The position numbers and the translations under genes were made by a program. DNA of 64,000 nt from an uncultured Candidatus Binatia bacterium. GTDB taxonomy: Bacteria; Desulfobacterota; Binatia; HRBIN30; CADEER01. This document shows, in pieces, positions 5,584 through 64,000 of the stretch (positions within the stretch are counted from its first letter, which is position 1; the number at the start of each line of letters is the position of its first letter). The stretch covers positions 9,012-73,011 of the forward strand of contig CAYVUV010000028.1 of the NCBI GenBank assembly GCA_964455095.1, written 5' to 3'. The notes below the pieces were generated by a model, which worked only from the letters and a program-made list of their open reading frames with translations, did no database searches and had not been told where the DNA came from.

Positions 5584-7745
5584 GCACCGCTCGGCAAGAC
5601 TCCGCAAAACGGAAGGCTCCGCGTCGCAAGGCGCAGCCGCGCCGCGCGCGTACGTCACATCGCGCCAAAGTCGCCGCACCCAGCGCCGACGTGGCGGAGT
5701 CGGAATTGATGACTCTCTGGTTCCGCTTGCTGGCGCGTTGTCGCGGCGCATGGTTGCAGCATCTCTGGCTCCTCGAAGGCTCATCCGACGGCCGCGCAAC
5801 CGTCACGCACGCGGAGCTCGCCGGCCTGCTTGCCGATCAGGATTCACTGGGCGAGGAAACGTCGTGGTCCCAGACGCAAGAGCCCGTCTCTCGCTGGCGA
5901 GACGAGGCGCAGAAAACCTGGCAGGCATTGAACGATCTGCCCCACTCGCGGTGCGCGCGACTGAGTCGTATCTTCGGACTGAGCCAAGAGGAAGTCGACC
6001 TGCTGCGCCTGTGCGCAGCGGTCGCGTTCGATCCCGCGCTCGGACGGGTGTGCGCGTACCTGCAGGATCATTCCGGGCGCACGTACATCACGGAACCCCT
6101 TGCCGCGCGACTACTGAAACTTGGGCGATCGAGCGTGTGGCCTTCCGAGATGAATGTGTTTCGCTGGGAGCTCATCCAACGCCGCGACGCCGGCCTGAGC
6201 GAACCGAACGCGCTCAGCTGCGATCCACAGGTGCGCGATTGGTTGCTCGGCCGGAGCACGCTCGATGAAACACTTCTGTGCGGCGTACGCACGGTCAATC
6301 CAGGCCGATCCGCGCTCCCCGAGTGGCCGGTCGACGAAATCGCCGCGTGGATTGCGGAGGCGCTGCAGCACGCCGATCCGCCGCGGCTGCGTGTCGTTGT
6401 CACGGCACCCGCCGGCGGCGGTAAGCGTACGTTTGCGAGCTTGGTCGCGCGGAAGCTGGGAATGCAGCTGCTGCTCATCGATGCCGACGGGGTCGACGAT
6501 GCCGGCTGGACACGCCTCTTTTGGCACGGCCAACGCCAGGCATTTCTCGACGCCGCCGCTTTGGCTTGGATCGGTCACGGGGCCTCGCACCGTCGGTGGC
6601 CGGCAAACGCGCCCTTCTTTCCGGCGCAGTTCGTCCTGTGCGAACCCGGGTCGGAGCCGGCGCGGATCGCCGGCGCAACGGACCGCCACGTGCGCTTGCG
6701 TGTGCCGGAAGCACGCACGCGCAAACGATTATGGCAGCACAGCTCGCCGGGTGCCGCGGAGTGGCCCGCCGACGAGCTGCGACAACTCGCCGAACGCCAC
6801 AGCGTCTGGCCCGGCGATATCGAACAGGCAGGTCGACTCGGCGCGCGGACACCCGCAGAGACGGGTGCGCTGGTGCGCGAAGCGGCGCGCTCCCGTTTCG
6901 GCCACCTCGCCGAGATTCTCGAGTGCCCGTTCACAACGGACGACCTTGTCCTTCCGGAAGGATTGCAGCAGATATTGGACGCAATTGCGTTCGAGGCCGC
7001 CGACCGCGCCGCCTTCTGGCGCCAACCCGAGGCGCGTCGTCTCTTCCCGCAGGGCCGCGCGCTCATTGCATTGTTCAGCGGCCCGTCGGGAACCGGAAAG
7101 ACAATGGCCGCGCAGGTCATCGCGGCGCGCCTGGGGCAGGATCTGTGCCGCGTCAATCTGGCTCAGCTCGTGAGCAAGTGGGTCGGCGAAACACCCAAGA
7201 ACGTCGAACAGGTCATTCGCGTCGCGGCGGAGAACGACGTCGTGCTGCTGTTCGATGAAGCCGACGCGCTGTTTGCGAAGCGCGCCACCGAGATTCGCGA
7301 CGCGCAGGACAAGTTCGCCAATACCGACGCCGCGTATCTTTTGCAGGCGATCGAGAGCTACCCGGGGATCGCCATTCTGGCCACCAATCTCAAAGCCAAT
7401 ATCGACCCCGCGTTCGTCCGCCGCATTCGTTATGTCGCGGATTTCCTCAAGCCCAACCCCACCCTGCAGCGGACATTGTGGATGAAGCTGGTGACGTCTC
7501 TCGCTGGGGAGTCGCGCGCACGCGCCCTGGCTCCCGCGTTGGATGTGCTGAGCACAGTGGCAGACGCGACCGGCGCTCAGATCAAGTACGCGGTGCTGGC
7601 GGGACTGTTCGCCGCCCGAGCACAGAAGACAGACATCAATGTCCGCCACCTGCTGACCGGACTGGATCGCGAGCTGATCAAGGAAGGTCGCGGCATCGCT
7701 CCGCGCGAGCGCGAACGCATCTTGAGCATGGAGGACGTTCGATGA
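5580..7745 (+). CDS. AAA+ ATPase (Afp15/Pvc15-like eCIS assembly/loading ATPase)
   Basis: Walker A is GPSGTGKT, followed by LVSKWVGETPKNVEQV and Walker B VVLLFDEADALF (CDC48/FtsH-type AAA). A degenerate first P-loop (APAGGGKRT) is present. The ATG at 5580 overlaps the upstream stop. Confidence 0.9.
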   Translation: MSTARQDSAKRKAPRRKAQPRRARTSHRAKVAAPSADVAESELMTLWFRLLARCRGAWLQHLWLLEGSSDGRATVTHAELAGLLADQDSLGEETSWSQTQEPVSRWRDEAQKTWQALNDLPHSRCARLSRIFGLSQEEVDLLRLCAAVAFDPALGRVCAYLQDHSGRTYITEPLAARLLKLGRSSVWPSEMNVFRWELIQRRDAGLSEPNALSCDPQVRDWLLGRSTLDETLLCGVRTVNPGRSALPEWPVDEIAAWIAEALQHADPPRLRVVVTAPAGGGKRTFASLVARKLGMQLLLIDADGVDDAGWTRLFWHGQRQAFLDAAALAWIGHGASHRRWPANAPFFPAQFVLCEPGSEPARIAGATDRHVRLRVPEARTRKRLWQHSSPGAAEWPADELRQLAERHSVWPGDIEQAGRLGARTPAETGALVREAARSRFGHLAEILECPFTTDDLVLPEGLQQILDAIAFEAADRAAFWRQPEARRLFPQGRALIALFSGPSGTGKTMAAQVIAARLGQDLCRVNLAQLVSKWVGETPKNVEQVIRVAAENDVVLLFDEADALFAKRATEIRDAQDKFANTDAAYLLQAIESYPGIAILATNLKANIDPAFVRRIRYVADFLKPNPTLQRTLWMKLVTSLAGESRARALAPALDVLSTVADATGAQIKYAVLAGLFAARAQKTDINVRHLLTGLDRELIKEGRGIAPRERERILSMEDVR

Positions 7746-7984
7746 AGCGCGGCAGTGTGCGCATCGATGCGTTGCGACTCAGAGCTCCTGGTTTGACCCG
7801 CGAGGAGGCGCGGCAGTTGGGTGACGCGACGGCACGCGGACTGGATGCCCTGTCGAGACAACCAGTCATGCCGGGACGCATCGCGCGGCTCTCTCTGCGC
7901 GTTCAGTCTCACGGGCCTGTATCCGCCGGCCAGATCGCGGATGCCATCGTCACGAAAATTTCCCAGCGGAAACCGCAGGCGTGA
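7742..7984 (+). CDS. Small hypothetical protein (80 aa) coupled between the ATPase and the DUF4157 protein
   Basis: The ATG at 7742 overlaps the ATPase stop (ATGA), and its own stop overlaps the ATG of the next gene (TGATG). The sequence is MKRGSVRIDALRLRAPGLTREEARQLG... Confidence 0.55.
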   Translation: MKRGSVRIDALRLRAPGLTREEARQLGDATARGLDALSRQPVMPGRIARLSLRVQSHGPVSAGQIADAIVTKISQRKPQA

Positions 7985-10900
7985 TGCAAGCTAGGGCTGC
8001 AAAAAAGACTTCTACGGCTAGCCCCGCTGTCCGTGACAGCGCGCCCGCCGGCCACGTCGAGAGACCACATGGGGCAGCGAATCGTCATCGGCAAAGCACG
8101 CCGGCGGCGCGCGAGGCGCTGCATGCCGAGCATCCGGCGCCATCACCCGCCGTGCCGATACAAGCGTCCGGCCTGCTGCTCCAGCGAAAATGCGACTGTG
8201 CCGGAAGCTCGAACGGCGAGTGTGAGACCTGCCGCAAGGGGCTGTTGTTGCGCCGCTCATCCGGCCCGGCTCCAGGTGCTATCCCGCCAGCTGTACGCGG
8301 GATTCTTGCTGCGCCCGGACGCCCGCTCGATTCTGAGACTCGCAACGTGATGGAACGGCGATTCGGTCAGGACTTCAGCGGGGTCCGCGTCCATGACGGA
8401 GCTGCTGCCGCTGAATCCGCAAGGGCGGTGTCAGCGCAAGCCTACACTGTGGGGCAGGACATCGTATTCGGCTCGGGTCGATATGCGCCGCATTCCCATT
8501 CTGGGCGCCATCTGCTCGCGCATGAATTGGCGCACACCGTCCAGCAGCGAGGAATTCAGCGCAGCGGTATCGACGGCGTCTCCATTCCTTTGGCCAGTGA
8601 GAATCAGCGGCTCGAGCAGGAAGCCGAGCATGCTGCGAATGCGGTTTCAGACGGCCAATCTGTATCCGGGTTCGGGGCGACAACAGCCGGTCCCGTGCTT
8701 TCCCGGCAGGCTGATACCGCAGCCACAGGTGGCGGCGAGGGCGCGACCGCTCCCGGGCCGACGCGTACGTGGGAGACGCTGGCCACTCCGCTCGATGTGG
8801 GCAATGGCGTGCAAATCACAGCTCGGCAGGATGAGGGAACCGGGGTTGTTGCCTTTCGCGTCAACAAATTCCTTCTGCCTGCGATCAAGGGGCGAGTGCT
8901 GGAATTCTACCGCGCGAAAGCCAACGCTCAAGCCCTTGAAGCGACAGTCGGATTCACCGGGCGTGTTCCAAACGCCGGGCTTTGGCAGTCACGCGATTCT
9001 ACCGGTGACTTGCGCGCGAGCTGGCTGGGCAAGCTCGGCTGGACCGGGGCGGACGCCGCCGAGAATTGGTTTCAAGCGGGTGGGCGGCAGGCCCAGGGGA
9101 ATAGTCAGGCCTTCTCTCCGGCGCTGGCGAGCGGCACGACCTGCCAGATGGACCACATCGTCGAGCTCCAACTGGGCGGGACGAACACACGGAACAATAT
9201 TCAAGTCCTCGATCCCGTCGAAAACCAGCAGAGCGGAAGAGACATCCGCGTGTGGGTCCTCGACTTGGCGAAACGAGCAAGAGAGACGCTCAATCCGAAG
9301 CCGGATTTCATCCTGTTGCATTTCGACGCGGTTGAGCAGCAAGGCAGCGTTGCTGAGTTTTCTGCCTGTCCGCAGCCGGGTCAGGCGACGAAATGCATCG
9401 ACGTGGAAGGGTGCGCGACGACGCGGCGCGTTGAAGCGTCCGCGGCGGCAGCCGGAATGGAGGCCTATGCGGTGGCGGCCGGCGGAGCGAGCGACGTCCT
9501 GCGGGTCTTACCGCCGCCGAACCCCAGCGATCTGACCGGTGACGAAAATCGCGCGCCGCGTCAAATCGTCGCGGGAATGCTCCTCAACACCCTCCAAAGA
9601 GGCACGAATAACACCGGCGACGTCATCTCTGCTGAATTCGATTCGGACAATCTCATCAAGAATGCCGGCCGAACACGCGTTCCAATCGACGTCACGCAAC
9701 GGCCATCCAACCTGCAGTTCTCGGTCAATGCCGAAAATCGAAATCTAACGCTCACCCAACCAAGGAACCCGGCTGTGGATTTCGTGTATCCATTCCTTAG
9801 CCGCGGTCACCTCAATCTGACCTACGATCCGGACGCAGGAGTCGGCGCTACCGGAACGCTCACGCCGAGCCTGCCGCTGCTCAGTCGAGTTCCGTTTCAC
9901 CTCGATCTCAACCGCGAACGGTTGCGGGCGGAGATGCGCGCCGATCCTGCGGAGCTACGCTCGCCGATTCCCGGTTTACGATTTACCGAGCTAAGCCTCG
10001 GCGCCGACTTGCTGCCGGAGTTCAATCCCACTGGTCGGATCGCGTTTGTCATTGGACCCGAGGGGCGCCCGTTCCTCAATGGGATACTCGAAGCAAGTTA
10101 CGACAACGGCTTCGTCCTGGACGGGGATCTATTTGCAAACATTCCTGGAACCGACCGCGCACAAGGCCATGTGCAGTATCGAAACCGGCAATGGTCGGGT
10201 TTCGTGCTCGTCGAAAGCACAAAGATCCGTCTTCCCGGTTTCCAACGCGGCGAGTTGCGTGTGGATTTCAATCCGGATGGCACGATCCGACCCAGTGGTG
10301 CGGTCGACCTGTTGATCTTGGGCAATCCCGTCGCCTTGCGAGCCGCCTACCAAGACGGGCGGTTCATTCTGACCGGCGACGCCACTCTGCGCGTACCGAA
10401 TCTGCAGCCGGTGAACGTATCGCTGCGACACGATGGCGAGCATCTCTCGGGCTCGGCGCGAACTGCCATCGCGATTGGCGGACTGACCGGCACTGTGCTG
10501 GTCCGCTATCGCGATGGACTGCTGTCGGGTCAGGGAACCGCGGCAATCCAGCGGGGTCGCGCCAGCGGTAACATCAATCTCAACATCAGCGAAGCCGGCG
10601 AGCTGTTCGGTGAGGGCAGCGCGACCGTACGGCTGACGGATAACCTCGTCGGTAACGTGGGTATCGTCAAGCCGGAGCGAGGGCCGCTCCGCGTCCGCGG
10701 TGAGATGCGCTTCCCGAACGCGATCATCCTCTTCCGCGGCATAGAGCGCAGCCATACGCTATTTGAACGCACCCTCGAATTCGGAATTCCTGGTCTTTCC
10801 ATACCGGTCGTAAACGTGGGGGTGATCGCCACACTGACCGGTAGACTCTCAGTCGGCTACGGGTTTGGTCCTGCGACCCTCAATAACGTTCACGTTGGCG

Positions 10901-53013: not shown

Positions 53014-53156
53014 GGTGCCAGCGCACCAGAGAATCACGAAAGCTCGAAGGTACGAGAACACGACACTTAGATCTGTAGGGCCTGAAATGACTGAGTCTGT
53101 TTTTCGTGGTTTCACTCTTTCGTGGTTTCGTGATTCTCCGAATCATCCGTGGCACC
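53014..53156. repeat. AT-richer intergenic element with long-range inverted repeats and a 12-bp direct repeat
   Basis: GGTGCCA (53014-20) pairs with TGGCACC (53150-56). GAGAATCACGAAA (53029-41) pairs with TTTCGTGATTCTC (53126-38). TTTCGTGGTTTC occurs twice (53102-13 and 53118-29). Local composition is clearly less GC-rich than the flanks. Confidence 0.5.
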
Positions 53157-53277
53157 CCCTGAATTGGCGTTTCTGGGCAAAGCTCCCGGCGGGAGAGGAA
53201 GCAGAGACCGCACCGACTGCAAAGCCACTGGACGCCGCCGTGGCGGTGTGACAGTCCCTGGCGCAGGACGAATCTCC

Positions 53278-54609
53278 ATGCCCGAGCAACCCCCGGTCCA
53301 GTACGCGCAAAGCGTCGACCTGCACATCGCCTATCAAGTCGTCGGCGAGGGGCCGATCGACATCGTCGAAGTGCCGGGGATGCTGAACCACCTGGAGGTG
53401 ATGTGGGAGACGCCGGGGCTGGTGCGGTTCATCGGAAGGCTGGCGCGCCTGGGCCGCGTGATCTTGTTCGACAAGCGGGGCATGGGGCTCTCCGATCGCT
53501 TGGCACACGATGCGACGCCGACGATCGAAGAACGTGCCGACGACGTGCGCGCGGTCATGGACGCCGCCGGTTCGGCAAAGGCCGTGCTCATCGGTGTCGC
53601 CGACGGCGGAGTCATTGCGTTGCAGTACACCGCCATGTATCCCGAGCGCGTCCAAGCCCTGGTCCTACACGCGACCGGGCCGTGCGGCAGCCGCCGGCCG
53701 GACTTTCCCTACGGTCTCGATCCCGCCCTCACGGGGCGTCTGTTGGATCGTGTCGAGCGCGATTGGGGTACCGGCATCATGGGTCGTCTCTACGGCGATC
53801 GATCGCAGGCAGCCCGCGACTACTTCGCTCGCGTTGAACGGCGCGCGTGTCCGCCGCGCGCCGCAGCCGCCCTCATGCGCATGGGGTTCGATGTCGACCT
53901 ACGGCCCTTGCTGGTCTCCATTCGTGTCCCCACCGTGATCGTCCACCATCGCGACCATCCCGCCTGGCCGGTCGAAGGGGCGCGCTATCTCGCCGAGCAC
54001 ATTGCGGGCGCGCGGCTGATCGTCGAGGAGGCGCCGTTTTCGTTGCTGGGCGAATTCTGCGAGCGGCGCAGGGTCAGCGAGGCCGTCGAAGAGCTGCTCA
54101 CCGGTGCTCCGTCGATGCCCGGGCCGGAGCGCCTGCTGACCGTGCTGCTGTTCACCGACATCGTCGGCTCAACCGGCCGTGCCGCGGCGCTCGGCGATCG
54201 GGCCTGGCGCGACGTGCTCGACGACCACGACGGCGTCATTCGGCGCCTGGTCGAGGCGGCCGGCGGGCACTGCGTGAAGACGACCGGCGACGGCGTGTTG
54301 GCGCGTTTCGACGGCGCGGTGCGCGCCATTCGCTGCGCGCAGGCGATCGTCGCGGAGGTGAAACGGCTCGGGCTCGCCGTGCGCGCCGGCGTGCACGCCG
54401 GGGAGTGCGAACGGCTCGGCGACGACCTGGCCGGCATCGCCGTCCACGTCGGTGCCCGCGTCGCCGAGCTCGCCGGCGCCGGCGAAGTGCTCGTCAGCGG
54501 CACCGTACGCGACCTCGTGCTCGGCGCCGGCATCGAATTCGACGACCGCGGCCAGCACGTGCTGCGCGGCGTCCCGGGTACCTGGCCGGTGCTCGCCGTC
54601 GTGCGTTGA
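53278..54609 (+). CDS. Alpha/beta-hydrolase fold domain fused to a class III adenylate/guanylate cyclase domain
   Basis: The N-terminal part is VILFDKRGMGLSDR...IGVADGGVIA (hydrolase-like; the nucleophile position reads G-V-A-D-G-G rather than GxSxG). The C-terminal part is LTVLLFTDIVGSTGRAA...VKTTGDGVLARFDG...RAGVHAGECE, the class III cyclase motifs. I chose the start at MPEQPP (53278). Confidence 0.8.
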   Translation: MPEQPPVQYAQSVDLHIAYQVVGEGPIDIVEVPGMLNHLEVMWETPGLVRFIGRLARLGRVILFDKRGMGLSDRLAHDATPTIEERADDVRAVMDAAGSAKAVLIGVADGGVIALQYTAMYPERVQALVLHATGPCGSRRPDFPYGLDPALTGRLLDRVERDWGTGIMGRLYGDRSQAARDYFARVERRACPPRAAAALMRMGFDVDLRPLLVSIRVPTVIVHHRDHPAWPVEGARYLAEHIAGARLIVEEAPFSLLGEFCERRRVSEAVEELLTGAPSMPGPERLLTVLLFTDIVGSTGRAAALGDRAWRDVLDDHDGVIRRLVEAAGGHCVKTTGDGVLARFDGAVRAIRCAQAIVAEVKRLGLAVRAGVHAGECERLGDDLAGIAVHVGARVAELAGAGEVLVSGTVRDLVLGAGIEFDDRGQHVLRGVPGTWPVLAVVR

Positions 54610-54672
54610 GCAATCGGCTCAGCTGCCGTTAGCTGGGGCCGCGGGCGTCTCGGCAGCGGGCCCGTGAGCTGC

Positions 54673-55047
54673 CTATTCCGAGTCTTTCCCCGTTAGTAAG
54701 AACTCCAGCCGATCGCTCTCGACCGCCACGCGGCGCAGGACGAGCTGGAACTCCTCCGTCGTTACCCCGGCCTTCGGGACCCAGCCCTGGGCGCAAACGC
54801 GGCCGCGTGTGTCGATGCGGAAGCTGACTAGCTGGGCCGCTCGGTTGTGCCGCCAGATCCGAATCGCGAGGTCGTCAATGCCTCGCACAGACGCGGCGCC
54901 GGCGACAACGGCGCGAACCTCGAACGCCTCCTCGGTTTCGTGCACGCGGACACGGTGGAATCGGCCGTTCTCGAAGCGAACCACTACGTCCTCACCGTTG
55001 ATGTCTGCGTTCAACCCGCGGGCAAGAGTGCGCCATTCAGGTCCCAT
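54673..55047 (-). CDS. Small hypothetical protein (124 aa), last gene of the nuclease-helicase operon
   Basis: The ATG at 55047 is preceded by GAGGAGG at a spacing of 6 nt and overlaps the SNF2 gene's 3' end by 11 nt. The sequence is MGPEWRTLARGLNADINGEDVVVRFENGRFHRVRVHE... I recognise no motif. Confidence 0.6.
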   Translation of the reverse strand: MGPEWRTLARGLNADINGEDVVVRFENGRFHRVRVHETEEAFEVRAVVAGAASVRGIDDLAIRIWRHNRAAQLVSFRIDTRGRVCAQGWVPKAGVTTEEFQLVLRRVAVESDRLEFLLTGKDSE

Positions 55048-58000
55048 TGGTGCCCTCCTCTCGAAGATCGTCTTCGAACGCGTCGATGGTTGCGTCTCGC
55101 CCATCTTGGAAGTGCTCCCGCTCCATGTGGTCCGCCTGTTCGGTCACCCGGCGCACAAGCATGCCCACACGCGCCGCATCATGCTCGGTTGCGCCGAGCA
55201 GCACGTCGTCCTCGACGGTCAAGTCGTAGAGCCGCTCCGTCTTGGTCAAGATCGCGCCGATTCGGGACGGAAGACCTGCTGCGCGCGCCACGATCGGCTC
55301 AGGATCCTCTTTGGGGGTCGTGCGCCCGATCGGGCTCACGCAACGGACGACCGGGTGCCCGTGGTCGGAGCGAAGCACGAGCGTGAACGGCTGCACTCGC
55401 CCGCTCGGGAGGATCGCGGTCCCGAGGAGTGCCCCCTTCGGTGGGTGCGGAGTCCAGTCGATTGGCGGCGCGCCAAGATCAACTTTCATCAGGCGCTCGA
55501 ACCGCTCGCGCACCCGTGTCCCCAGCCCGTCGTCGACGGCGAGCGAGAGCTTGGACCCTTTGGTCGCCCCTTCTGGCACCGGGAAGGCGCTCTTGAGTGG
55601 ATCTCGAAAAGCCGCGACGCGCTTTCTGACTGCGACCATCTCGCGTTGCACGTCGATGCGGCGTTGTTCGGTCGCCGGTACGGTCAGGTCCTCATGCATC
55701 AATCGGAGGAACGTGTTCATCCGATTGAGTACGTTCTCGACCTGCAGCACCTCTACGGTGTCCTGCAGGTGCGGGAAGTAGACCTGGAGCCAGTCGTCTC
55801 CAGTCGGCTCGCGCTCGAGCGACGGGAGCCTGCGATCAGTCTGTGACCGCACGCGGTCGATGCGCCCGATGCGCTGCTCCATCGCGGACGGGGTCCACGA
55901 GATTCCGTAGTGGTGGATCGACGAGCAGAAGGTGTGAAGGTCCTCACCTTCCTGCAGCAGATCGGTCGTCACGAGCACAAACGGATACCCCGGCATGCGA
56001 AACTGACGAAGGAGGGTCTGGTTGACCTGTCCCGCCATTCCCCCCGTCGGCTGCTGCTGGCGCAGGAGCCGATCCACGTAGCGGGCCGACTCGCCGAGCG
56101 ATGCACTTCGCGCGTCTGGCATGTTCACGTCGAGAATCAGTTCGAAGTTCGTCGCAAGCTCCGTGACCTCATCGAGGGCGCCCCATGGTCGACCGCCTTC
56201 CGTCCGGAGCTGCGACTCGAGGAGGTCCAGATACTCGCGGAGAAGGCGGTCCCCACCGATTTCGATCTCGCGCTCCTCCGTATCGTCCGTCGTGCCGACC
56301 GATTTGGGGCGGCGCCCGAGTGAGAGGGTAGTTCGACCAGTCATCGCGGCGACATAGAGATCGATGAACGCGTGGCCGAGTCGCGCCGCGGTAGCGAGAA
56401 GCTCAGCGCGCAACGTTTGCTCACGGAAGTGGATGCGGAACTCCTCGATCGTGGATGGTGGCCAGGTCGCGGCCGGCCAGATGCGCGTTCGCAGGTCAGC
56501 TCGCTCAGGGCGTCGCAGCTCGGTGAAAAAAGTCGCTTGCTCGAGGGCGCTGGAAATCTCCGGGGGGGCTGTGCGGGAGGGCTCGCTGGATGTCTGGTAC
56601 CGCTCGTACCAGATCACACCGGCGCGATCCGCGTATTCCGAGCCCTTGCAATCGCGGAGCAGCTCGAGCGCTGCGGCCTGCGCCGCCTCCATGCGGCTCG
56701 CGCGCGTGACCACCTTGGCCTTTCGGCTCAGGTACTTCGCCGCATGTTCACGCACTCTGTCGTTCGCCTCTGCCAGCGGAAGACCAAGTGCAGTAGCGAG
56801 CGACTCGAGAACCTTGCCGGGCTCGCTGCCGAGCAGCTCCATCACATGGTTGTCGGCGAAGAAGGTCGAGTAGGCCCCGCTTCCCTTTATAAAGCGCCCC
56901 TGCACGTTCGCCCCGCTCAGGACGCCCTTCGGACCCTCCCCACGAAAGAACCAGGCGAAGAAGGTGTCGGTGCCACCGCGATCGTCTGGGTCGACATCCG
57001 TACTGATCACATCGTCCGGTGCAGCGACCGCTCCGCGCTGAGTCGGCTCGGCCTCGGCCTTCTCGCGACGATAGCGGGCGACGACTTCATCGAACGGCTC
57101 CTGCAATTCCGTCGGCAGGCGGCTGCGAAGGTAGGGAATGATCCAGTCGTCGTATCGCTCATCGAGCTTGCGCTTCAGCTCCTTTACCGACGCGACGCGC
57201 CGGACGAAGACCAACGATTTCCTGCCGGTCGTCCACGCCGACGCAAGCCCGTCGACGACGGCGTCCATCTTTGGGTGCGGCATCTCGCGCCCGAACTTGT
57301 GCCGGTAGCTTCTCGCCAGGCGGTTGAGATCGTGGACGTCGATTCCGTCACGCTCGCGTGGGACATCCGTTTGGTCCGCGTCGTCGAAGACGAGCTCGTC
57401 GTCGTTGCGTTTCAACTTGGCGGTTTCGAGGAAGCTCTCAAAGGAGGCGAGCATGCCGATCTGGAACGAGCGGTTGAACTGTTTGCCGCTGAGCAGCTCG
57501 CTCACCTTTTTCTGCACCAGCGCGACCAGGAGGCGCTGCCGATCGTCGGTTACCGTGATCGGCTCGTCGTACTGCCCCACGCCGCCAGCGCGCCACTCGC
57601 GGCGATACATGTTCTTGGTGTGCTCGCGCCCGCCGATCTGAATCGAGGTCACACGGCGAACCAGGAACTGGGCGGCGACTTGTTTCTTGCGTGCTTCGGG
57701 CACGTCGTCCGCACGCAGCTCGTCGAAGCCGGACGCGAGCCCGAAGAGGTCGAGCTGGTTCCAGATGTGCCGGTAGGTCTCCTCAAGCGGCGTGGCGGAG
57801 AGGAACAGCACACGCGTGGCGCGCGGACCGTAGTGGGGAAACAGGCGCGCGTTGGGGGCGTCAGCCGGAGCATGCCGGCCAAATGCCTCAGCGAGAACCT
57901 GGTTTCGCGCCGAGCCTGACGTCGCGAAGCCGTGCTTGAGATTGTGTGCTTCATCGACGATCACCAGATCGAAGGTCGGCAAGGCGCAGCAGAGGGCGCG

Positions 58001-58561
58001 CGCGAAATTCCTCTTGAAGACCTCCTTATTCCGCAGGTCGAACGCTTCGTCGGGGAGCCACGGCAGGTGCCGTTGGAGGCCATCGCGCACTTTCTTCCAG
58101 TCCTCTCCCGTTCTTCCGAGCGGAAGGCTGAAGCTGGACATGCGCAGGAAGAAGTCTCGGTTCGGGTCGAGACTCGTCTCGTGGACGAGAGCGAGGAGGT
58201 TGCCGCAGGAGACCAGGGGGCGCGCGGGACGGCCATCCAGCGAGCGCATGCGCAGGTCGTCGAACCGCACGTTGTGGGCGGCGAAGTTCGTCAGCTCCTT
58301 CTGCCACTTACGCTGGATGTTCTCGCGCGGCGCGATCACGAGGACACGAAACCCCGGGTCGAAGTGCCGGAAGAGCGCGAGGGCGCCCAGTGCCACATAT
58401 GTCTTGCCCATGCCGACCTCGTCGGCGAGATAGGCAAGCCGATGCTTGCGGAGGATGTTGTGGATCGCGACTGCGCCGCGGAGCTGCTCCTCGGCGCGAT
58501 GTCCCTCGCCGATGCGCTTGCCAAAGTCGAGGAGCGCTCGCGCCGCTTCGAGGTCGATCAT
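55037..58561 (-). CDS. SNF2-family (SF2) ATPase/translocase with about 330-aa C-terminal extension
   Basis: Motif I is LADEVGMGKTYVALG, motif II is DLVIVDEAHNLKH, and the C-lobe is VLVTTDLLQEGEDLH...QRIGRIDRVRS. The ATG at 58561 overlaps the PLD gene stop (ATGA). The ORF-track start at 58618 is a less likely alternative. Confidence 0.9.
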   Translation of the reverse strand: MIDLEAARALLDFGKRIGEGHRAEEQLRGAVAIHNILRKHRLAYLADEVGMGKTYVALGALALFRHFDPGFRVLVIAPRENIQRKWQKELTNFAAHNVRFDDLRMRSLDGRPARPLVSCGNLLALVHETSLDPNRDFFLRMSSFSLPLGRTGEDWKKVRDGLQRHLPWLPDEAFDLRNKEVFKRNFARALCCALPTFDLVIVDEAHNLKHGFATSGSARNQVLAEAFGRHAPADAPNARLFPHYGPRATRVLFLSATPLEETYRHIWNQLDLFGLASGFDELRADDVPEARKKQVAAQFLVRRVTSIQIGGREHTKNMYRREWRAGGVGQYDEPITVTDDRQRLLVALVQKKVSELLSGKQFNRSFQIGMLASFESFLETAKLKRNDDELVFDDADQTDVPRERDGIDVHDLNRLARSYRHKFGREMPHPKMDAVVDGLASAWTTGRKSLVFVRRVASVKELKRKLDERYDDWIIPYLRSRLPTELQEPFDEVVARYRREKAEAEPTQRGAVAAPDDVISTDVDPDDRGGTDTFFAWFFRGEGPKGVLSGANVQGRFIKGSGAYSTFFADNHVMELLGSEPGKVLESLATALGLPLAEANDRVREHAAKYLSRKAKVVTRASRMEAAQAAALELLRDCKGSEYADRAGVIWYERYQTSSEPSRTAPPEISSALEQATFFTELRRPERADLRTRIWPAATWPPSTIEEFRIHFREQTLRAELLATAARLGHAFIDLYVAAMTGRTTLSLGRRPKSVGTTDDTEEREIEIGGDRLLREYLDLLESQLRTEGGRPWGALDEVTELATNFELILDVNMPDARSASLGESARYVDRLLRQQQPTGGMAGQVNQTLLRQFRMPGYPFVLVTTDLLQEGEDLHTFCSSIHHYGISWTPSAMEQRIGRIDRVRSQTDRRLPSLEREPTGDDWLQVYFPHLQDTVEVLQVENVLNRMNTFLRLMHEDLTVPATEQRRIDVQREMVAVRKRVAAFRDPLKSAFPVPEGATKGSKLSLAVDDGLGTRVRERFERLMKVDLGAPPIDWTPHPPKGALLGTAILPSGRVQPFTLVLRSDHGHPVVRCVSPIGRTTPKEDPEPIVARAAGLPSRIGAILTKTERLYDLTVEDDVLLGATEHDAARVGMLVRRVTEQADHMEREHFQDGRDATIDAFEDDLREEGTNGT

Positions 58562-60621
58562 GACTGCTGCCCCTCCGACAACGCTTCCGCGCGACTCAGG
58601 AACAACCGTTCGAACCACTCGAGGAACTCCGGCATATCTGGTGAGCCCGCGGCGATTCCAGCGCGAAGGGCGGCGGCGTCGCTGAGACGCGCCTCGATCT
58701 CTTTCATATCGTCGCGATGCTCGGCAAAGTAGTCGGTGAACGACCGGCTCAGCTCGCGCAGCAGCTGTTTCGCGCAGAGCGTGACCACGTACTGCTCAAC
58801 GCGATCCCCAGTTCCCGCGCCGGCGTCTTTCAAGACGCGATCGAGCAAGGTCCCGAGCGAATCGTACTTCCTGCCGAAGAGGCGGTAGTCGGCTTCACGG
58901 GGCTTACCCTCATTGAGTGCAGCGCGGACGCGTTCGTCGAGACTGTCGAACGCGAGGAACACCCCGGCGAAGAGGTCGAACAGCGTCCTCTCGACCGGAA
59001 GGGGGGCCAATCTCGCAATCAGCGGATCGTCATCACCAGCGATCCGCGCGTGGGCCTCGATGAAGGCGGCGCGCTGTTCGACCGTGAGGAGCGCCCAATA
59101 GCGGAGGATGTCAGCGGCAGTCAGGTCGAGAAGGAGCGAGGGGCGGTGCGACATGCCCTCCTCCTGGACGAGTAGAAGGCCGGGCTCGACACCCTCGCCC
59201 GAAACTTCGAGAAGCGACGTCGAGACCAACACTTGTTCGAGCTGGCCGCTCTGATCGGCGTCGAGCTTCACCCAGGTGCGCGCCGGGAGGCCGACAAGCT
59301 CCAGCACACTCACGCCTCCGTGCTGTACCGACAGCGCGGGGGATTCGGTGGCGTCGCCCCAGAAGGCGCTAGCCTCATGCGTGTTCCAGCGGAATCGGAG
59401 AATGAGTCTGGTGCCTCCGCTCGCCGCTGTGCCTTCGTCTTCCTCGCGTGGGGCGAATGCGAGTGGCCGTTTCGTTTCGGTGGTCAGCCACCAGTCAGGA
59501 CGCGAGCCAGTGGTGACCTCGACGAGAAACCCGGTCTCCCAGTTGCCGCCCCGTCCTGCTAGGCGACACCCAGCGGCCGTTAGGTTGGTCGAGCCGACGT
59601 AGAGGATCTCGCGCCCGCCCCTCTTCGGCTCGAAGAACCGATAGACTTTCGCGTGGACGCCCCGAGGTCTGGCGTCCTCGGTTTTTCCAAGTCGGAGGAG
59701 ATCGCCGGGGAGCGCTGCCCAGGACACGTCGGGGCAGTTGCGTACCCAGGCAAACAGAGCCTCGGAGCACAGTGCCTCGCCGCGCTCGCTTCGAGGAAGG
59801 AACACTCGTGTCTCACGAGGGTCGAAGCGCGAGAGCAGCTCCTCGAGCGGAGCGGAGACACCGCCGGTGTCGAAATAGGGAGAGATTACCTCGAGGCAGA
59901 AGCCACGCAGCGACTTCCCTGCGGCGGTCTCGACGAAGTCCGGCAGCGATGCCTCGCCGTCATGGAAGTGGGGTAGCAGCCGACCACCAATGGAGCGGTG
60001 CTTGTGCTGGGTTGTGCCGCGCAGGAACGCACGGATATCGCTCAGCGCGGCGTGTTCCGCCCGCAACTCGTCGTTCGCGCGCCGCCCTTCGGCGGCGCGG
60101 ACGAGTGCGTCGAGGTATCCGATGAGCGCATCGCGGAGATTGGTGAGTTCTCCATCGCCGATCTCCTCGACATGTGCGACCTCGACGTTCTCCCACCAGC
60201 CCGCGCGCGTGAGGTTCGCGGACAAGCATCCGAAGAGGAGGGCGCGAGCGTGATGTCCGTCGTCGTCCGGCTCGGTGCTCTCGACGAGCGCGAGGACGTT
60301 CTTCGGATGGAAAATGCCGGTCGCGTGCCAGATCGGAATCCGCCGGATGTCGAGCTTCGCCGCGCCTCCGTCGGCCACGAGACCGTGTTGGTCGTAGTAG
60401 ACCGCGATCGACCCCGGCAGGGATTTCAATGCGTCCTCGAGCTGGACCAGCTTGATGGCTGGGGCATGGCTCAAGGGAATGTCGAAGAAGACGGGCAGTA
60501 CTTCGGTCTCGAAGAAGCTCGGTTCGAGGCGAAACGTCGTGAAGACTGCCGACACGAGCCGGCGATCCTTCATCCGCTCTAGGAAATGTTCCGATAGGAC
60601 GGCGCGAGGGATCTCGCTCAT
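58558..60621 (-). CDS. Phospholipase D-family (two HKD-like motifs) putative nuclease with about 300-aa C-terminal domain
   Basis: The first motif is IFHPKNVLALVE...GCLSANLTRAG and the second is GVHAKVYRFFE...LYVGSTNLTAAG (HxK...GSxN). The true start, MSEIPRAVL at 60621, overlaps the upstream stop (ATGA). The ORF-track 1050-aa version is an Arg-rich artefactual extension. Confidence 0.85.
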   Translation of the reverse strand: MSEIPRAVLSEHFLERMKDRRLVSAVFTTFRLEPSFFETEVLPVFFDIPLSHAPAIKLVQLEDALKSLPGSIAVYYDQHGLVADGGAAKLDIRRIPIWHATGIFHPKNVLALVESTEPDDDGHHARALLFGCLSANLTRAGWWENVEVAHVEEIGDGELTNLRDALIGYLDALVRAAEGRRANDELRAEHAALSDIRAFLRGTTQHKHRSIGGRLLPHFHDGEASLPDFVETAAGKSLRGFCLEVISPYFDTGGVSAPLEELLSRFDPRETRVFLPRSERGEALCSEALFAWVRNCPDVSWAALPGDLLRLGKTEDARPRGVHAKVYRFFEPKRGGREILYVGSTNLTAAGCRLAGRGGNWETGFLVEVTTGSRPDWWLTTETKRPLAFAPREEDEGTAASGGTRLILRFRWNTHEASAFWGDATESPALSVQHGGVSVLELVGLPARTWVKLDADQSGQLEQVLVSTSLLEVSGEGVEPGLLLVQEEGMSHRPSLLLDLTAADILRYWALLTVEQRAAFIEAHARIAGDDDPLIARLAPLPVERTLFDLFAGVFLAFDSLDERVRAALNEGKPREADYRLFGRKYDSLGTLLDRVLKDAGAGTGDRVEQYVVTLCAKQLLRELSRSFTDYFAEHRDDMKEIEARLSDAAALRAGIAAGSPDMPEFLEWFERLFLSRAEALSEGQQS

Positions 60622-61958
60622 TCCGAGCCTCGAAGGGCACCGGCCACGCTCCGTAGCGAGCCGACGAAATAGGCGTGGCGCCAGTAACCGGGCAACGCGT
60701 CGGCTTCCGGGAGTCTGCCGAGCTGTTCGTCGCGGAACCGGACGTCGAGCTTGCCGTCGCGCATGACGGCCCAGGGTGCCGCGGCGCCGCGCGCCTTCAT
60801 CACCGCGGCGTTCTGATCGAGAACGAGCTGGATCGCGTCCTCGTAGCGGGCGTTGTGGAACGCCGCCGCGAGCTGAGTCCACCGTTGTCCCGATTCGGGG
60901 TCGTCGTTCCCTGCGCGCAGGTCCGGCTCGAGCGCCTCGGTTGCCTCGATGTCGACCGTGCGCCGCGGCGCTGCGCCCCAATGCTGGCGAACGTCCTTGG
61001 CTATCTGCGCCGGCGTTTGACCGTCGCATCCGAGCAGATGTTCGAAGAACGCGGCCGCGGGGGCCAGGAGCAATTCCGCGGTGCGGATGCGCTCGAGTTG
61101 GAAGGCGAGTTGGTCGCCAACTTCGCCGCGCTTCCGGGCGCGCATGGCCAAGGCGCGCATCGACTCGGGCGTGAGCGACCAGTCGTCCTCCTCGAGCGTC
61201 TCGGTCAAGAGCTCCGCGAACACCTGTTGCCTGCCCTGCGTGCCGCGGTTGGGATCGAGATCGCCACGGCCGCCGTGCAGGAGGTGCTCGCGGTAGAGGT
61301 CGCGCTCCGCCGCACGGAGGGTGCCGAGGGCCTTGGCGACACCTTTGAGTACTGCCGCATCCTTTCGGACATCGAGGGGGTACGCATCCGAGCGCAGGCG
61401 ATCCACGATGCCCCGAACGGTGCGTGCTCCAGCCGATTCGAGTACCGGCACCAGGCTGCGCTCGACCACGAGTCTGGCTGGTACTGTGAGGCGAGTGGGG
61501 TCGCCTTCCAGGAGGCCGGATGCCTTCGCCGGGATCGTGTACAGGCCCCAGAGCCCGTAGATTTTCTGGTTGCCGAGAATCTGGGCGTTGGCATCGAGGC
61601 CGAGGCGAACCCGATCGTCTTCGGCGAGCCGGCGCCACACGCGTTCCGTGCCGCGGAAGGCGCGCTCTTTGTTGACGTGGGCGCGCGCGTACGCGGCGAG
61701 CTGTTCCCACTTCAGGAAGGTCGCAAGGTCCCCCGCGGTGCCGCCTTCTTCAGCCACCCGCTCGGCGAAGTAGTAGCCGAGCAGCAGCACGGTGAAGTCG
61801 CGCACCGAATTGCTCACGGTGGTCAGGTTCGCAATGACGTGGCGCCCGAGCCGTGACCAGAGCGCCTGCACGCCGAGAGGATCCCGCGATCCCTTGATCG
61901 CGGCGCGCGAATCGAGCTGCGTGAGGAATGGCGTCGTGAGGGGGCCGGTGTTTTTCAC
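60618..61958 (-). CDS. Orphan 446-aa protein of the nuclease-helicase operon (no recognisable family)
   Basis: The GTG at 61958 overlaps the HNH stop (GTGA), and there is no in-frame ATG for about 280 codons. The sequence begins VKNTGPLTTPFLTQLDSRAAIKGSRDPLGVQALWSRLGRHVIANLTTVSNSVRDFTVLLLGYYF. Composition is protein-like and mostly helical-looking. Confidence 0.7.
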   Translation of the reverse strand: MKNTGPLTTPFLTQLDSRAAIKGSRDPLGVQALWSRLGRHVIANLTTVSNSVRDFTVLLLGYYFAERVAEEGGTAGDLATFLKWEQLAAYARAHVNKERAFRGTERVWRRLAEDDRVRLGLDANAQILGNQKIYGLWGLYTIPAKASGLLEGDPTRLTVPARLVVERSLVPVLESAGARTVRGIVDRLRSDAYPLDVRKDAAVLKGVAKALGTLRAAERDLYREHLLHGGRGDLDPNRGTQGRQQVFAELLTETLEEDDWSLTPESMRALAMRARKRGEVGDQLAFQLERIRTAELLLAPAAAFFEHLLGCDGQTPAQIAKDVRQHWGAAPRRTVDIEATEALEPDLRAGNDDPESGQRWTQLAAAFHNARYEDAIQLVLDQNAAVMKARGAAAPWAVMRDGKLDVRFRDEQLGRLPEADALPGYWRHAYFVGSLRSVAGALRGSE

Positions 61959-62731
61959 GCAGGAGTTGCCTTGAAGACCTTGGCCCTGTGCCAGGGCAAG
62001 TAGATGCGATGTGCATCGGTGAGGGCGCGGACCCGCAAGCTCGAGTCGATGCCGAGCAGCTTGCGCGCGGCATCGCCAAGCCCTGCTGACACGAGCACCG
62101 TGCCGTCGTCGGCCACGGTGATGAAACCGCAGTCGAACGCAGCGTCCAGGTGCGGGGCGAGCAGGAGGCCGTTGAAGACGTCGAGGCGCTCGGCATCGGT
62201 GGCGCAGTCCGCCCACGGCTTGATGTGGCTGGCGCGCAGGAGCTCGGGGACGGCGAGGCCGGTGATGGCGCAGCGGCCTTCCCAGTACTCGAGGAGGCCT
62301 CGGCGAAAGATGTCCTGGCCGACGCGTTGGACGACCAGGCGCTCGGCCTCGGTGGTTCTCGGCAGCGCGGCGGTCTGCTTCTCGAAGGTGTGGAGGAGCT
62401 CGTCGGGTAGCGTCTTGCTGAGCTGGAAGGCGCGGCGAAGCAGGCGGTGGAGTACTGAGATGTCGGTGACGGCCCGGCCGTCGAGGGCTCCATTCGGGAG
62501 CGGGGCGGCCGCGGGCGTGCCGTATTCGCCGAGCGCGCGGGCAACGTTCTGCTGCGAGAAGGCGGCGAGAAAGACGGCTTCGCCGGAGCTACCGACCCAG
62601 ATGCGCAGCGGGCACTGCGTGCTCGCGAAGCCGAGCCAATTTCCTTCGCGCGGCAGGTCCTGGTCAAAGCCGTTGTCAACGGCGGCCTTTTCCAGGCGCG
62701 AGGCGATGACGGGCGAGAAGGCGATGGTCAT
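61955..62731 (-). CDS. HNH endonuclease (HNH_2 / McrA-like C-terminal domain) with an uncharacterised N-terminal domain
   Basis: RVGQDIFRRGLLEYWEGRCAITGLAVPELLRASHIKPWADCATDAERLDVFNGLLLAPHLDAAFDCGFITV is the PF13391-type HNH signature. The ATG overlaps the DUF1016 stop (ATGA). Confidence 0.85.
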   Translation of the reverse strand: MTIAFSPVIASRLEKAAVDNGFDQDLPREGNWLGFASTQCPLRIWVGSSGEAVFLAAFSQQNVARALGEYGTPAAAPLPNGALDGRAVTDISVLHRLLRRAFQLSKTLPDELLHTFEKQTAALPRTTEAERLVVQRVGQDIFRRGLLEYWEGRCAITGLAVPELLRASHIKPWADCATDAERLDVFNGLLLAPHLDAAFDCGFITVADDGTVLVSAGLGDAARKLLGIDSSLRVRALTDAHRIYLPWHRAKVFKATPA

Positions 62732-63957
62732 GGCTTGCGTCCCTTGCGCTTCGTCGCTGGCTTTCGGGCCCTGCTCCTCCTCTCGCCAGATTCGCCACCA
62801 GCTTTGTGGCGAATTGCAGCTTCTGCTGAGGGCGCGGCGGGGTCGCTCGGTGCGAGCTGTGCGTAGAGCTCGTGGAGCTTTCGCCGCAAGAGCGCCCTCG
62901 GCGGCAGCACGGTCTGGTACTCGGCCACTAGCGCAGGCGACAGGGTACGGCTGAGGGCATACTCGACGACTTCGTTGTCCTTCGTCGCGCAGAGCAGGAC
63001 GCCGATCGAGGGCCGCTCCTGTGGCTTCTTCACGTCGCGATCGAGCGCCTCCAGGTAGAAGCTCAGTTTGCCAAGGTCTTCGGGGCGGAATTCGCGGACC
63101 TTCAGTTCGAAGGCGACGAGGCAGGTCAGGCCGCGGTGGAAGAATACGAGGTCGATCGCGAAGTCCTGGTTGCCAACCTGCACCGGGTACTGGGATCCGG
63201 CGAAGCAGAAGTCGCGACCAATCTCGGTGATGAAGCGGCCCAGGTTACGCAGTAGCGCGCCGTGCAGGTCGGCTTCTGAGTGGCCATTCGGCAGGTCGAG
63301 GAACTCGAGGGTGTAGGCGTTCTTGAAGTTCTCGAGGGCGGTCGGGTGAATTTGTGTCAGCGCCGCTGACACTTTCTTCGCGCTGAGTTCTCGTCGGCGG
63401 AAGGCTTGGCTGCGGAGCTGGCGTTCCAGCTCGCGCGAGGTCCAATCATCCTTGATCGCTGCCAGCATGTAGAACTGGCGTTCCTCGCGGAGCTTCGTCT
63501 GGCTGAGGATGAGGAGGTGATGGGTCCAGGGCAATTGTGTCAGCAGCGCTGACACTTTCTTCTCGTCCCGGTAGACTTCGTAGAATTGCCGCATCCGAAA
63601 CAGGTTGCGGCGCGTGTAGCCGCGCATGCCGGGATACTCGCGCGCGATCGTGGCGGCGAGCTCGTCGACCACCCCGTCGCCCCACTCGGCGGTCACGATC
63701 TTCTTGCTGATGTACTCACCGAGTTGCCAGTACAGCCCGACCAGCTCAGTGTTGACGGCTTGGTACGCGCGTCGCCGGGCTGCCTCGATGAGTGCGAGGA
63801 CCTCGTCGAACTTCCCAGCGGAATCGAGCGCGGTTGATTGTCGCCGCGGCGCGGCGACAATCTGGGCGTCCCCAATACTGGCCGACGTTTGTCTCATCGC
63901 TGATGAGACTTTCTTCGCCCCTGCTTTCGGGGGCTTCTTGCGCGGCGGCTTTGTCAT
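62728..63957 (-). CDS. DUF1016 / YhcG-family PD-(D/E)XK nuclease-like protein
   Basis: AYQAVNTELVGLYWQLGEYI...GYTRRNLFRMRQFYEVY...LPWTHHLLIL...ERQFYMLAAIKDDWTSRELERQL, then C-terminal FAIDLVFFHRGLTCLVAFELKVREF (D...ExK), follows the YhcG layout. It has a Lys-rich N-terminal tail. There are only 43 nt of upstream sequence in the window. Confidence 0.85.
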   Translation of the reverse strand: MTKPPRKKPPKAGAKKVSSAMRQTSASIGDAQIVAAPRRQSTALDSAGKFDEVLALIEAARRRAYQAVNTELVGLYWQLGEYISKKIVTAEWGDGVVDELAATIAREYPGMRGYTRRNLFRMRQFYEVYRDEKKVSALLTQLPWTHHLLILSQTKLREERQFYMLAAIKDDWTSRELERQLRSQAFRRRELSAKKVSAALTQIHPTALENFKNAYTLEFLDLPNGHSEADLHGALLRNLGRFITEIGRDFCFAGSQYPVQVGNQDFAIDLVFFHRGLTCLVAFELKVREFRPEDLGKLSFYLEALDRDVKKPQERPSIGVLLCATKDNEVVEYALSRTLSPALVAEYQTVLPPRALLRRKLHELYAQLAPSDPAAPSAEAAIRHKAGGESGERRSRARKPATKRKGRKP

Positions 63958-64000
63958 CGCTGGCCCTTCTTGTCCGCAGCGGGGCGGGTGTCAGGGTGCG

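Follow-up and report, generated by a model that had tools for sequence, protein, structure and literature searches.

A predicted four-gene nuclease-helicase cassette of the Azaca/PDC-M27 kind and a probable DISARM-like module in an uncultured Candidatus Binatia bacterium

Azaca (ZacA-ZacB-ZacC), which is said to have been first reported by Millman et al. in 2022, is a nuclease-NTPase defence system that carries no methyltransferase of its own. It is composed of a DUF6361 protein, a phospholipase D (PLD) nuclease and a helicase, and in vitro all three Zac proteins, the nuclease site and Walker A were needed for DNA cleavage, with T4 DNA being the preferred substrate (bioRxiv 10.1101/2025.07.10.664194). 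Hachiman (nuclease HamA + helicase HamB) is described as a complex that lacks a methylase and whose nuclease is under the control of the helicase (PMC12278908). PADLOC further lists PDC-M27, a predicted system with components M27A, M27B and M27C, and PDC-S02, a single-gene DUF1016/YhcG candidate, one representative of which gave no protection against T4, T5 or T7 (bioRxiv 10.1101/2024.09.26.614923). DISARM class 1 consists of an SNF2 protein (DrmD), a methylase (DrmMI), a helicase (DrmA), a DUF1998 protein (DrmB) and a PLD protein (DrmC). In this study, a chain of six minus-strand genes was compared with these systems. The chain lies at positions 54673 to 63957 of a 64,000-nt stretch of DNA (the window) from an uncultured Candidatus Binatia bacterium (assembly GCA_964455095.1, contig CAYVUV010000028.1, positions 9,012 to 73,011).

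A first-pass annotation had taken the six genes for one uncharacterised defence system. Our results indicate that the locus probably consists of two adjoining, independent defence modules packed into one overlapping transcription/translation unit, and that the four downstream genes form a cassette of the Azaca/PDC-M27 superfamily. The window proteins were named g1 to g6 from upstream to downstream, and the cassette g3-g6 corresponds to subunits A-B-C-D. The features of the chain are as follows, with the basis of each assignment in brackets.

63958..64000, minus strand: 3' end (last 14 codons) of a large Eco57I/DrmMI-type N6-adenine DNA methyltransferase gene (homologue comparison)
62728..63957, minus strand: g1, DUF1016/YhcG PD-(D/E)XK nuclease-family protein, 409 aa (Pfam, PADLOC)
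61955..62731, minus strand: g2, HNH_2 endonuclease, 258 aa (Pfam, PADLOC)
60618..61958, minus strand: g3, subunit A, all-alpha protein without a fold match, 446 aa, GTG start (AlphaFold2, Foldseek)
58558..60621, minus strand: g4, subunit B, PLD-superfamily nuclease, 687 aa (HKD motifs, ZacB and PDC-M27B profiles)
55037..58561, minus strand: g5, subunit C, SNF2/RapA-like superfamily 2 (SF2) ATPase, 1174 aa (Pfam ResIII and Helicase_C)
54673..55047, minus strand: g6, subunit D, protein with a YbjN/type III secretion chaperone-like fold, 124 aa (AlphaFold2 and Foldseek)

The gene chain and its co-conservation

All six open reading frames (ORFs) were recovered at the positions first assigned to them, with the junctions and motifs that had been quoted. 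The g1/g2 junction is ATGA, g2/g3 is GTGA (the GTG start of g3 overlapping the g2 stop), g3/g4 and g4/g5 are ATGA, and g5 and g6 overlap by 11 nt, with GAGGAGG located 7 nt 5' of the g6 ATG. The six genes are real and not chance ORFs, since each has many homologues, and the chosen start codons are backed by homologue lengths (123-126 aa for g6 relatives and ~430-446 aa for g3 relatives). The TGA of the methyltransferase gene overlaps the g1 ATG in the same manner (ATGA); the chain thus extends over at least seven genes and runs off the window edge. Scanning the window proteins against NCBIfam gave no match above the cut-offs.

An alignment of g3 homologues was used to scan one genome per species, and the six window proteins were compared by tblastn with the 77 loci obtained, which span Myxococcota, Planctomycetota, Acidobacteriota, Pseudomonadota, Verrucomicrobiota, Gemmatimonadota, Ignavibacteriales, Actinomycetota and others. 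In 41 of these loci the g3 homologue is complete and the downstream DNA extends for 6 kb or more. Genes g4, g5 and g6 followed g3, collinear and on the same strand, in 40 of these 41 loci, representing at least eight phyla, and in the 41st (L075) g6 was fused to the helicase. The 36 cassettes that could be fully extracted encode proteins of ~435, 680, 1160 and 124 aa, and in most of them g4/g5 overlap by 4 nt and g5/g6 by 8-14 nt. Distribution of the cassette is patchy over at least eight phyla at ~40-75% identity.

None of the 60 loci with at least 2.1 kb of upstream DNA had a g2 homologue directly 5' of the cassette. Homologues of g1 were found near the cassette in 2 of the 77 loci, never adjacent to it, and those of g2 in 3, with distances and strands varying. 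The closest cassette relatives, from Corallococcus, Myxococcus stipitatus (CP102770) and metagenomic contigs (67-76% identity), are preceded by unrelated genes and have no g1 or g2. To test the converse, homologues of g2 (37-82% identity) were collected from 75 metagenome loci, and g3-g6 were absent from all of these loci (0/75). Conservation of the gene order had been set beforehand as the check on a single six-gene system, and the six genes proved not to be co-conserved; g3-g6 travel together without g1 and g2, and g2 travels without g3-g6.

In one locus (L023), an insertion of ~1.3 kb (11288-12617) separates the g3 and g4 homologues. In three other loci (L013, L067 and L069), the tblastn matches to g4 and g5 were broken into fragments, possibly owing to pseudogenes or assembly errors.

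The g3-g6 cassette and its relation to Azaca and PDC-M27

Subunit A (g3) belongs to a large family, with 1087 clusters at 50% identity having E<=1e-3 and 445 having E<=1e-30. It matched the PADLOC model PDC-M27A (E 3.7e-21) over positions 270-458 of 460, the C-terminal 41%, and so did 16 of 16 family members tested. Searches with 16 members gave no match in Pfam, DUF6361 included, and none to the PADLOC ZacA model, even at E<10. The AlphaFold2 (AF2) model, with a predicted local distance difference test score (pLDDT) of 91.8, is nearly all helical; Foldseek found no fold match in the PDB (best E 2.4) or BFVD (best E 1.1), and a profile search of PDB sequences came back empty. The 446-aa protein, which could not be placed at first, therefore stays without a match in Pfam or in the fold searches of the PDB and BFVD. 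Within residues 1-28 (~61875-61958), ten positions (F11, L12, T13, D16, K22, G23, S24, D26, P27 and L28) are invariant in 69 sequences, and residues 1-20 are the sole part of the model with a pLDDT <50. The model suggests that this N-terminal peptide may fold on a partner subunit.

Subunit B (g4) carries two HKD motifs, H105-x-K107...S134-A-N136 and H323-A-K325...G343-S-x-N346 (HPK..SAN and HAK..GSTN), and residues H105, K107, S134, N136, H323, K325, G343, S344 and N346 are conserved at >=97% in 52 sequences. Both motifs lie in residues 1-370 and are followed by a conserved C-terminal region of ~300 aa without a match. Residues 19-371 aligned with positions 19-335 of the 586-position ZacB model of PADLOC (E 2.5e-17), covering the PLD part only; PDC-M27B was matched at positions 9-150 of 635 (22%; E 3.4e-8), and none of the other PLD models of PADLOC matched. 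In Pfam, no match of g3, g4 or g6 passed the threshold, and across the g4 family weak matches were seen to PLDc_2 (24 of 26 members, best E 1e-6) and RE_NgoFVII (13 of 26). No PDB relatives of g4 were found by sequence or profile search. The two PLD motifs seen by the first-pass annotation in this 687-aa protein are thus confirmed, the assignment being based on the conserved HKD residues together with the ZacB, PDC-M27B and PLDc_2 profiles, which individually are sub-threshold in Pfam.

Subunit C (g5) passed the Pfam thresholds for ResIII and Helicase_C. The SNF2-rel_dom score was below the gathering score (22 vs 24.9 bits), so that of the initial call as an SNF2 ATPase the helicase part stands and the SNF2 part falls short; "SNF2-like SF2 ATPase" is therefore the safe wording. 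Motifs I (GMGKT), II (DEAH), III (SAT) and VI (QRxGRxxR) are conserved at >=97% in 45 sequences, the two RecA lobes are separated by a long insertion, and ~200 aa at the C-terminus form a further domain. PDC-M27C was matched with E 1.7e-78 over the N-terminal half (46%) of its 1217 positions. ZacC was matched with E 1.1e-24, residues 592-907 aligning with positions 593-902 of 1019, a match that goes beyond the generic helicase motifs. With DrmD, DpdE, DrmA and BrxH, only ~50 aa of helicase motifs V-VI were matched. The best PDB sequence match was RapA, in the motif-I region only.

Subunit D (g6) was modelled by AF2 with a pLDDT of 92.9 as a small alpha/beta protein with a long C-terminal helix, resembling YbjN and type III secretion chaperones. 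Foldseek against the PDB returned 2plg, ExsC, SigE, YbjN, AmyR, CesT and others with probability 1.0 and template modelling (TM) scores of 0.5-0.74. There was no Pfam match at E<=0.01 and no PADLOC match, so the assignment is at the level of the fold only. A literature search found no paper linking YbjN-like proteins to nuclease-helicase defence.

The most distant locus, L075 from Halieaceae, has A, B and C at 29%, 24% and 35% identity and contains three genes, the helicase being 1265 aa long. A hidden Markov model (HMM) of the g6 family matched the last 100 residues of this helicase (E 2e-20). Searching with the L075 helicase collected a sister clade of 120 proteins of ~1,250-1,330 aa (P0355-P0474), and those with a source name are from Gammaproteobacteria, among them Vibrio splendidus, Dasania, Microbulbifer and Mangrovimicrobium. 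A g6-like domain was found at the extreme C-terminus of 118 of the 120 helicases (median E 3e-15); the two without it are shorter (1090 and 1130 aa). In V. splendidus the operon reads A(417)-B(667)-C(1258) and adjoins a bpMoxR-VWA-HEPN system; examples of the fusion are found at 13254-17051 of L075 and 9001-12777 of L160. The sister clade thus resembles the cassette in having homologous A, B and C in the same order with tight spacing, the same PADLOC pattern and a defence-island setting. It differs in having D as a domain at the C-terminal end of the helicase (C of 1258-1290 aa) and not as a separate overlapping gene.

Judged by these sequences, D appears to be a domain of the helicase, either ancestral or derived. 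The fusion leads to the prediction that g6 binds g5, and it explains the conserved overlap of the two genes. Presence in 40 of 41 loci and fusion in the sister clade indicate that g6 is an integral component and not a hitch-hiker. A YbjN-like nature of the g5 C-terminal domain (~1020-1174), which would then pair with g6, was examined with hhalign and is speculative, as the E value was 0.01 with the first alignments and 0.11 with larger ones, which is not significant.

Comparison of the cassette with Azaca showed the same gene order, with a protein of no recognised family followed by a PLD nuclease and an SF2 helicase as in zacA-zacB-zacC, and the same lack of an own methyltransferase. The PLD/HKD nuclease of ZacB has its counterpart in g4 and the SF2 helicase with Walker A of ZacC in g5 (GMGKT and DEAH), each with the partial coverage given above. 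This is different from Azaca in that the constant fourth subunit, the YbjN-like D, is not described for Azaca in the papers searched, and in that B and C of the cassette cover only 30-55% of the Zac models. PDC-M27 is likewise approached in that g3, g4 and g5 match M27A, M27B and M27C in the same order in adjacent genes; a separate D gene is not part of its A/B/C nomenclature. These Azaca and PDC-M27 matches are hits to PADLOC component models and not a system call by PADLOC. With regard to a match of the gene set to a named system, g3-g5 thus do have relatives (PDC-M27A/B/C and ZacB/ZacC), with only partial coverage of the models. The resemblance to Hachiman is a functional analogy only, both having a methylase-free nuclease and a helicase; the HamA nuclease has an unrelated fold (DUF1837 instead of PLD), two subunits make up Hachiman, and homology was not detected.

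The first-pass annotation had set the locus apart from DISARM, Dpd, SauUSI and Mokosh, and this was borne out for each system as a whole. No DUF1998/MZB or methyltransferase domain is encoded by g3-g6, and the DrmD and DrmA matches of g5 are limited to ~50 aa. For Dpd, only short DpdE helicase-motif matches of g5 were obtained, and no other Dpd model matched any of the six proteins.

The split and fused clades share the same partial PADLOC pattern and are therefore sister branches of a superfamily that includes PDC-M27 and Azaca; with the same partial coverage, both clades are relatives, not members, of the PDC-M27 model sequences. By analogy to these systems, the cassette most likely encodes a predicted four-subunit Azaca-like nuclease-helicase defence complex, within the Azaca/PDC-M27 kind and not a categorically new system. 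It is doubtful that the cassette is simply an ordinary member of catalogued Azaca or PDC-M27 with g6 as an incidental hitch-hiker. The matches to PDC-M27A/B/C, ZacB and ZacC and the zacA-zacB-zacC-like order would fit such membership, and a D-like domain might already be part of the M27C model with its 1217 positions. However, the matches are partial (9-150 of 635 in M27B, 270-458 of 460 in M27A, 593-902 of 1019 in ZacC), 16 members of the g3 family lack ZacA or DUF6361 similarity, and g6 is as constant as described above.

By analogy to the Azaca case, A, B, C and D would form one complex. The SNF2-like ATPase C would load on and translocate along DNA with ATP, and the two-HKD PLD nuclease B, with an intramolecular HKD pair, would be the DNA-cleaving effector. 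D may be a chaperone-like adaptor on the C-terminus of the helicase, and A a non-enzymatic regulatory or sensor subunit. No methyltransferase was found within any of 40 cassettes; therefore, discrimination between self and non-self must rest on something other than host methylation. The invader might be recognised by modified bases, which have been suggested for Azaca with T4, by structures formed in replication, or by a DNA or protein cue of the phage, and the cassette would exert its presumed anti-phage activity in response to such a trigger.

Chaperone-like folds bind extended peptides, and D may on this ground be regarded, speculatively, as a candidate protein sensor. Extending this, a tentative possibility is that A and D make up a protein- or peptide-binding trigger gating a PLD nuclease on an SNF2 motor, and that g3-g6, together with the fused sister clade, represent a distinct, widespread four-subunit family (at least 1000 clusters at 50% identity) differing from Azaca in how infection is sensed. 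The peptide bound by D could then be an unfolded one of the phage, or the invariant and seemingly disordered N-terminus of A. If true, nuclease-helicase immunity would here be activated by a new principle.

The module upstream of the cassette

The DUF1016/YhcG call for g1 was confirmed by Pfam (YhcG_C, E 3.9e-51; DUF1016_N, E 4.3e-43), and PDC-S02 of PADLOC was matched over its full length (E 2e-126). The HNH call for g2 is also sound, with the CAITG, HIKPW, NGLLL and FD motifs present and matches to HNH_2 (E 7e-12) and to the PADLOC HNH model PDLC04132 (E 1e-26). Within g1, three hairpins with 8-bp stems followed by TTTCTTC were observed on the plus strand at 63354-63372, 63537-63555 and 63891-63909 (GTGTCAGC-NNN-GCTGACAC). 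On the opposite strand these stretches encode a peptide that occurs three times in g1, KKVS(A/S)A(L/M)(T/R)Q, and this repeat is also found in g1 homologues, the DNA palindromes not; it is probably codon choice, and not regulation, that accounts for the hairpins.

The last 43 nt of the window, read in the frame ending in the TGA of the ATGA at g1, translate to HPDTRPAADKKGQR and a stop. Directly 5' of the closest g1 homologues lies a methyltransferase gene, the product of which ends in AHPDTRPAAEKKGKR in L104 and in AHPESTRPASAKKGAS in L079, each followed by the stop, and in both loci this stop overlaps the DUF1016 start as ATGA, the same as in the window. The 14-residue tail in the window is identical to the L104 methyltransferase at 12 of 14 positions. 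The window therefore ends inside a DrmMI/Eco57I-type methyltransferase gene, of which 63958-64000 is the 3' end. The methyltransferases of L104 and L086 matched Eco57I, N6_Mtase and MmeI_Mtase in Pfam, and in PADLOC the methyltransferase of the g2 loci matched DrmMI (E 6e-61). That the operon might continue past nt 64000 had been foreseen by the first-pass annotation and was found to be the case; its statement that no methyltransferase is visible was an artefact of the window edge.

Among the g2 loci, 16 of the 20 with >5 kb of upstream DNA had a homologous methyltransferase of 1,370-1,630 aa upstream on the same strand, and in 14 of those loci an SNF2 protein precedes it. This SNF2 protein matched best, over its full length, the PADLOC model labelled DpdE and in part DrmD (E 1e-77). 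A Helicase_C+MZB(DUF1998) protein was located further upstream wherever the DNA of g2 loci reached far enough. A DUF1016 gene was present directly 5' of the HNH gene in 11 of 37 g2 loci with enough DNA, with 27-77% identity to g1. The module order elsewhere is helicase-DUF1998, SNF2, N6-methyltransferase, an optional ~660-aa protein, an optional DUF1016 protein and HNH.

By this comparison, g1 appears to be an optional insert between the methyltransferase and HNH genes, which differs from the single-gene concept of PDC-S02. Likewise, g2 probably encodes the nuclease at the end of a DISARM-like module made of helicase-DUF1998, SNF2, methyltransferase and HNH. The g2-type module resembles DISARM class 1 in its DrmMI-like methyltransferase, DrmD-matching SNF2 protein and helicase-DUF1998 protein. 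It differs in having HNH (with or without DUF1016 and the ~660-aa protein) where DrmC would be, and in that the helicase and DUF1998 parts sit in one protein. MADS was also considered as the context of g2; only mad5-like and mad6-like PADLOC matches were found on neighbours, and the DISARM-like description fits better.

The recurrent HNH-bearing variant was observed in seven metagenome loci (L086, L094, L098, L104, L119, L131 and L143). Genes 3' of HNH vary in g2-type loci, examples being a PD-T4-6/mad6-like kinase and Avs2; in the closest relatives of g1 and g2 (L079 and L104; 73-82% identity), Avs2 or unrelated genes come next. With DUF1016 and HNH belonging to or accompanying the upstream methylase module, the notion of three nuclease folds and a translocase in one unit no longer applies.

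Two ways of joining the modules were weighed. It is improbable that they are coupled such that the upstream methyltransferase also protects host DNA from the PLD-helicase cassette, which would then be an extra DISARM-like effector arm. Such a link would be in line with the unbroken overlap chain from the methyltransferase to g6, with the homologous helicase-DUF1998 and SNF2 module adjoining the cassette in L048 and L054, and with a more distant pair of SNF2 and MmeI-type methyltransferase genes directly downstream of it in L156. However, such a neighbour occurs in only ~4 of ~50 cassette loci, with differing positions and orientations, and for most cassettes the surrounding 10 kb hold no methyltransferase and the neighbours are unrelated defence genes, as island sharing would give. 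In L048 and L054, the only further loci found, the DISARM-like helicase genes adjoin the cassette on the opposite strand, which makes the co-location look like a shared island and not like an obligate association.

It is very unlikely that all six genes are one integrated, methylase-free defence system with type IV-like logic. In its favour, all six are chained by start/stop overlaps with zero intergenic DNA; their GC contents (62.9-68.2% per gene) and GC at third codon positions (GC3) are broadly alike; and scanning 54300-64000 for promoters and terminators revealed no sites on the coding strand beyond shuffled expectation. Against it stand the lack of co-conservation, the absence of g1 and g2 from the closest cassette relatives, the different genes that follow the closest g1/g2 relatives, and the methyltransferase gene abutting g1.

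Genomic setting and significance

Cassettes in other genomes adjoin known defence genes, and, taken with the relationship to Azaca and PDC-M27, this sustains the assignment of the locus to defence. Upstream neighbours included BrxL, a DRT-associated RmuC, a type I specificity subunit and a TIR-NLR protein (4 of 10 tested). Other adjoining genes were SIR2, a MukBEF/Wadjet-like set, the SNF2 and MmeI-type methyltransferase pair, AbiJ, a DUF1156 methyltransferase, a Schlafen-like (SLFN) gene, NERD-UvrD, an RNaseH-helicase, YjiT/YjiV (Druantia-like) and bpMoxR-VWA-HEPN. These neighbours change from one genome to the next, as is characteristic of mobile defence genes residing in variable islands, and the location in such islands proposed at the outset is thus found for g3-g6.

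No tblastn match for g3 or g4 was obtained among 72,556 plasmids, and among 2.9 million viral contigs there were two cassette matches (L154 and L155, IMG/VR). With two viral contigs and no plasmids, the cassette is not an obvious mobile-element maintenance module. L154 and L155 match a locus of a Bryobacterales bog metagenome-assembled genome (L008) in coordinates and identity values over the parts compared, and their viral label may reflect an integrated element or misclassification. A role in DNA repair, recombination or mobile-element maintenance instead of defence is as hard to credit as the six-gene system: repair and RNA-polymerase recycling also employ SNF2-like ATPases and PLD nucleases, the best PDB match of g5 by sequence is to RapA, and some loci, e.g. 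L157, lie among housekeeping genes, but the distribution is patchy over at least eight phyla, different defence genes recur next to the cassette and the profile likeness is specifically to Azaca components with published anti-phage activity.

Several points weigh against reading the locus as two independent modules with a cassette of the Azaca/PDC-M27 kind. The ZacA/DUF6361 component has no counterpart detectable by Pfam or PADLOC in g3 (16 members), and whole-system homology to Azaca is therefore carried by B and C. Coverage of the PDC-M27 models is 41% for A, 22% for B and 46% for C, and a literature search for PDC-M27 found no paper that mentions it. Complex formation and DNA targeting are taken from the analogy with Azaca. 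The helicase genes of the upstream module are deduced for this genome from other genomes, the part seen here being the 14-residue methyltransferase tail, and the GTGA overlap of g2 and g3 makes a functional coupling of the modules conceivable in this genome.

Downstream of the cassette, a 486-aa ORF at 53149-54609 (plus strand) is convergent with g6 and marks the downstream edge of the cassette. By eye, its product resembles an alpha/beta-hydrolase fused to an adenylate/guanylate-cyclase-like domain. Across 56-64 kb, which takes in most of the six-gene region, GC is a little lower (64.5-66.6%) than across 28-54 kb (67-71%). At the other end of the window, an extracellular contractile injection system (eCIS) cluster of the PVC-like type occupies 72-26417 on the plus strand, with a GC content of ~64% vs 67-71% in the next 26 kb. 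The cluster includes the following features.

72-2165, plus strand: tail sheath
4276-5583, plus strand: Pvc16_N protein
5565-7745, plus strand: AAA ATPase
7981-11433, plus strand: eCIS_core protein, 1150 aa
12528-13592, plus strand: GPD baseplate hub
14734-22249, plus strand: three large ORFs with no Pfam match
22261-25671, plus strand: DUF6519 and beta-helix protein

In the reading preferred here, a tempting six-gene, three-nuclease system is replaced by two separable units, and the locus is a reminder that window edges can hide a methyltransferase. For the upstream unit, a recurrent DISARM-like variant with an HNH gene, with or without DUF1016, is documented. The conserved unit downstream, four genes in ~7.3 kb, is defined precisely enough to be cloned. 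The cassette is an abundant, phylum-spanning branch of the Azaca/PDC-M27 superfamily with a predicted role in defence. Its constant chaperone-fold subunit D, which the sister clade has as part of its helicase, represents a natural "Rosetta-stone" fusion that predicts physical interaction with the helicase. Together with D, the confidently modelled subunit A, which has no structural relative, provides handles on phage recognition by methylase-free nuclease-helicase systems.

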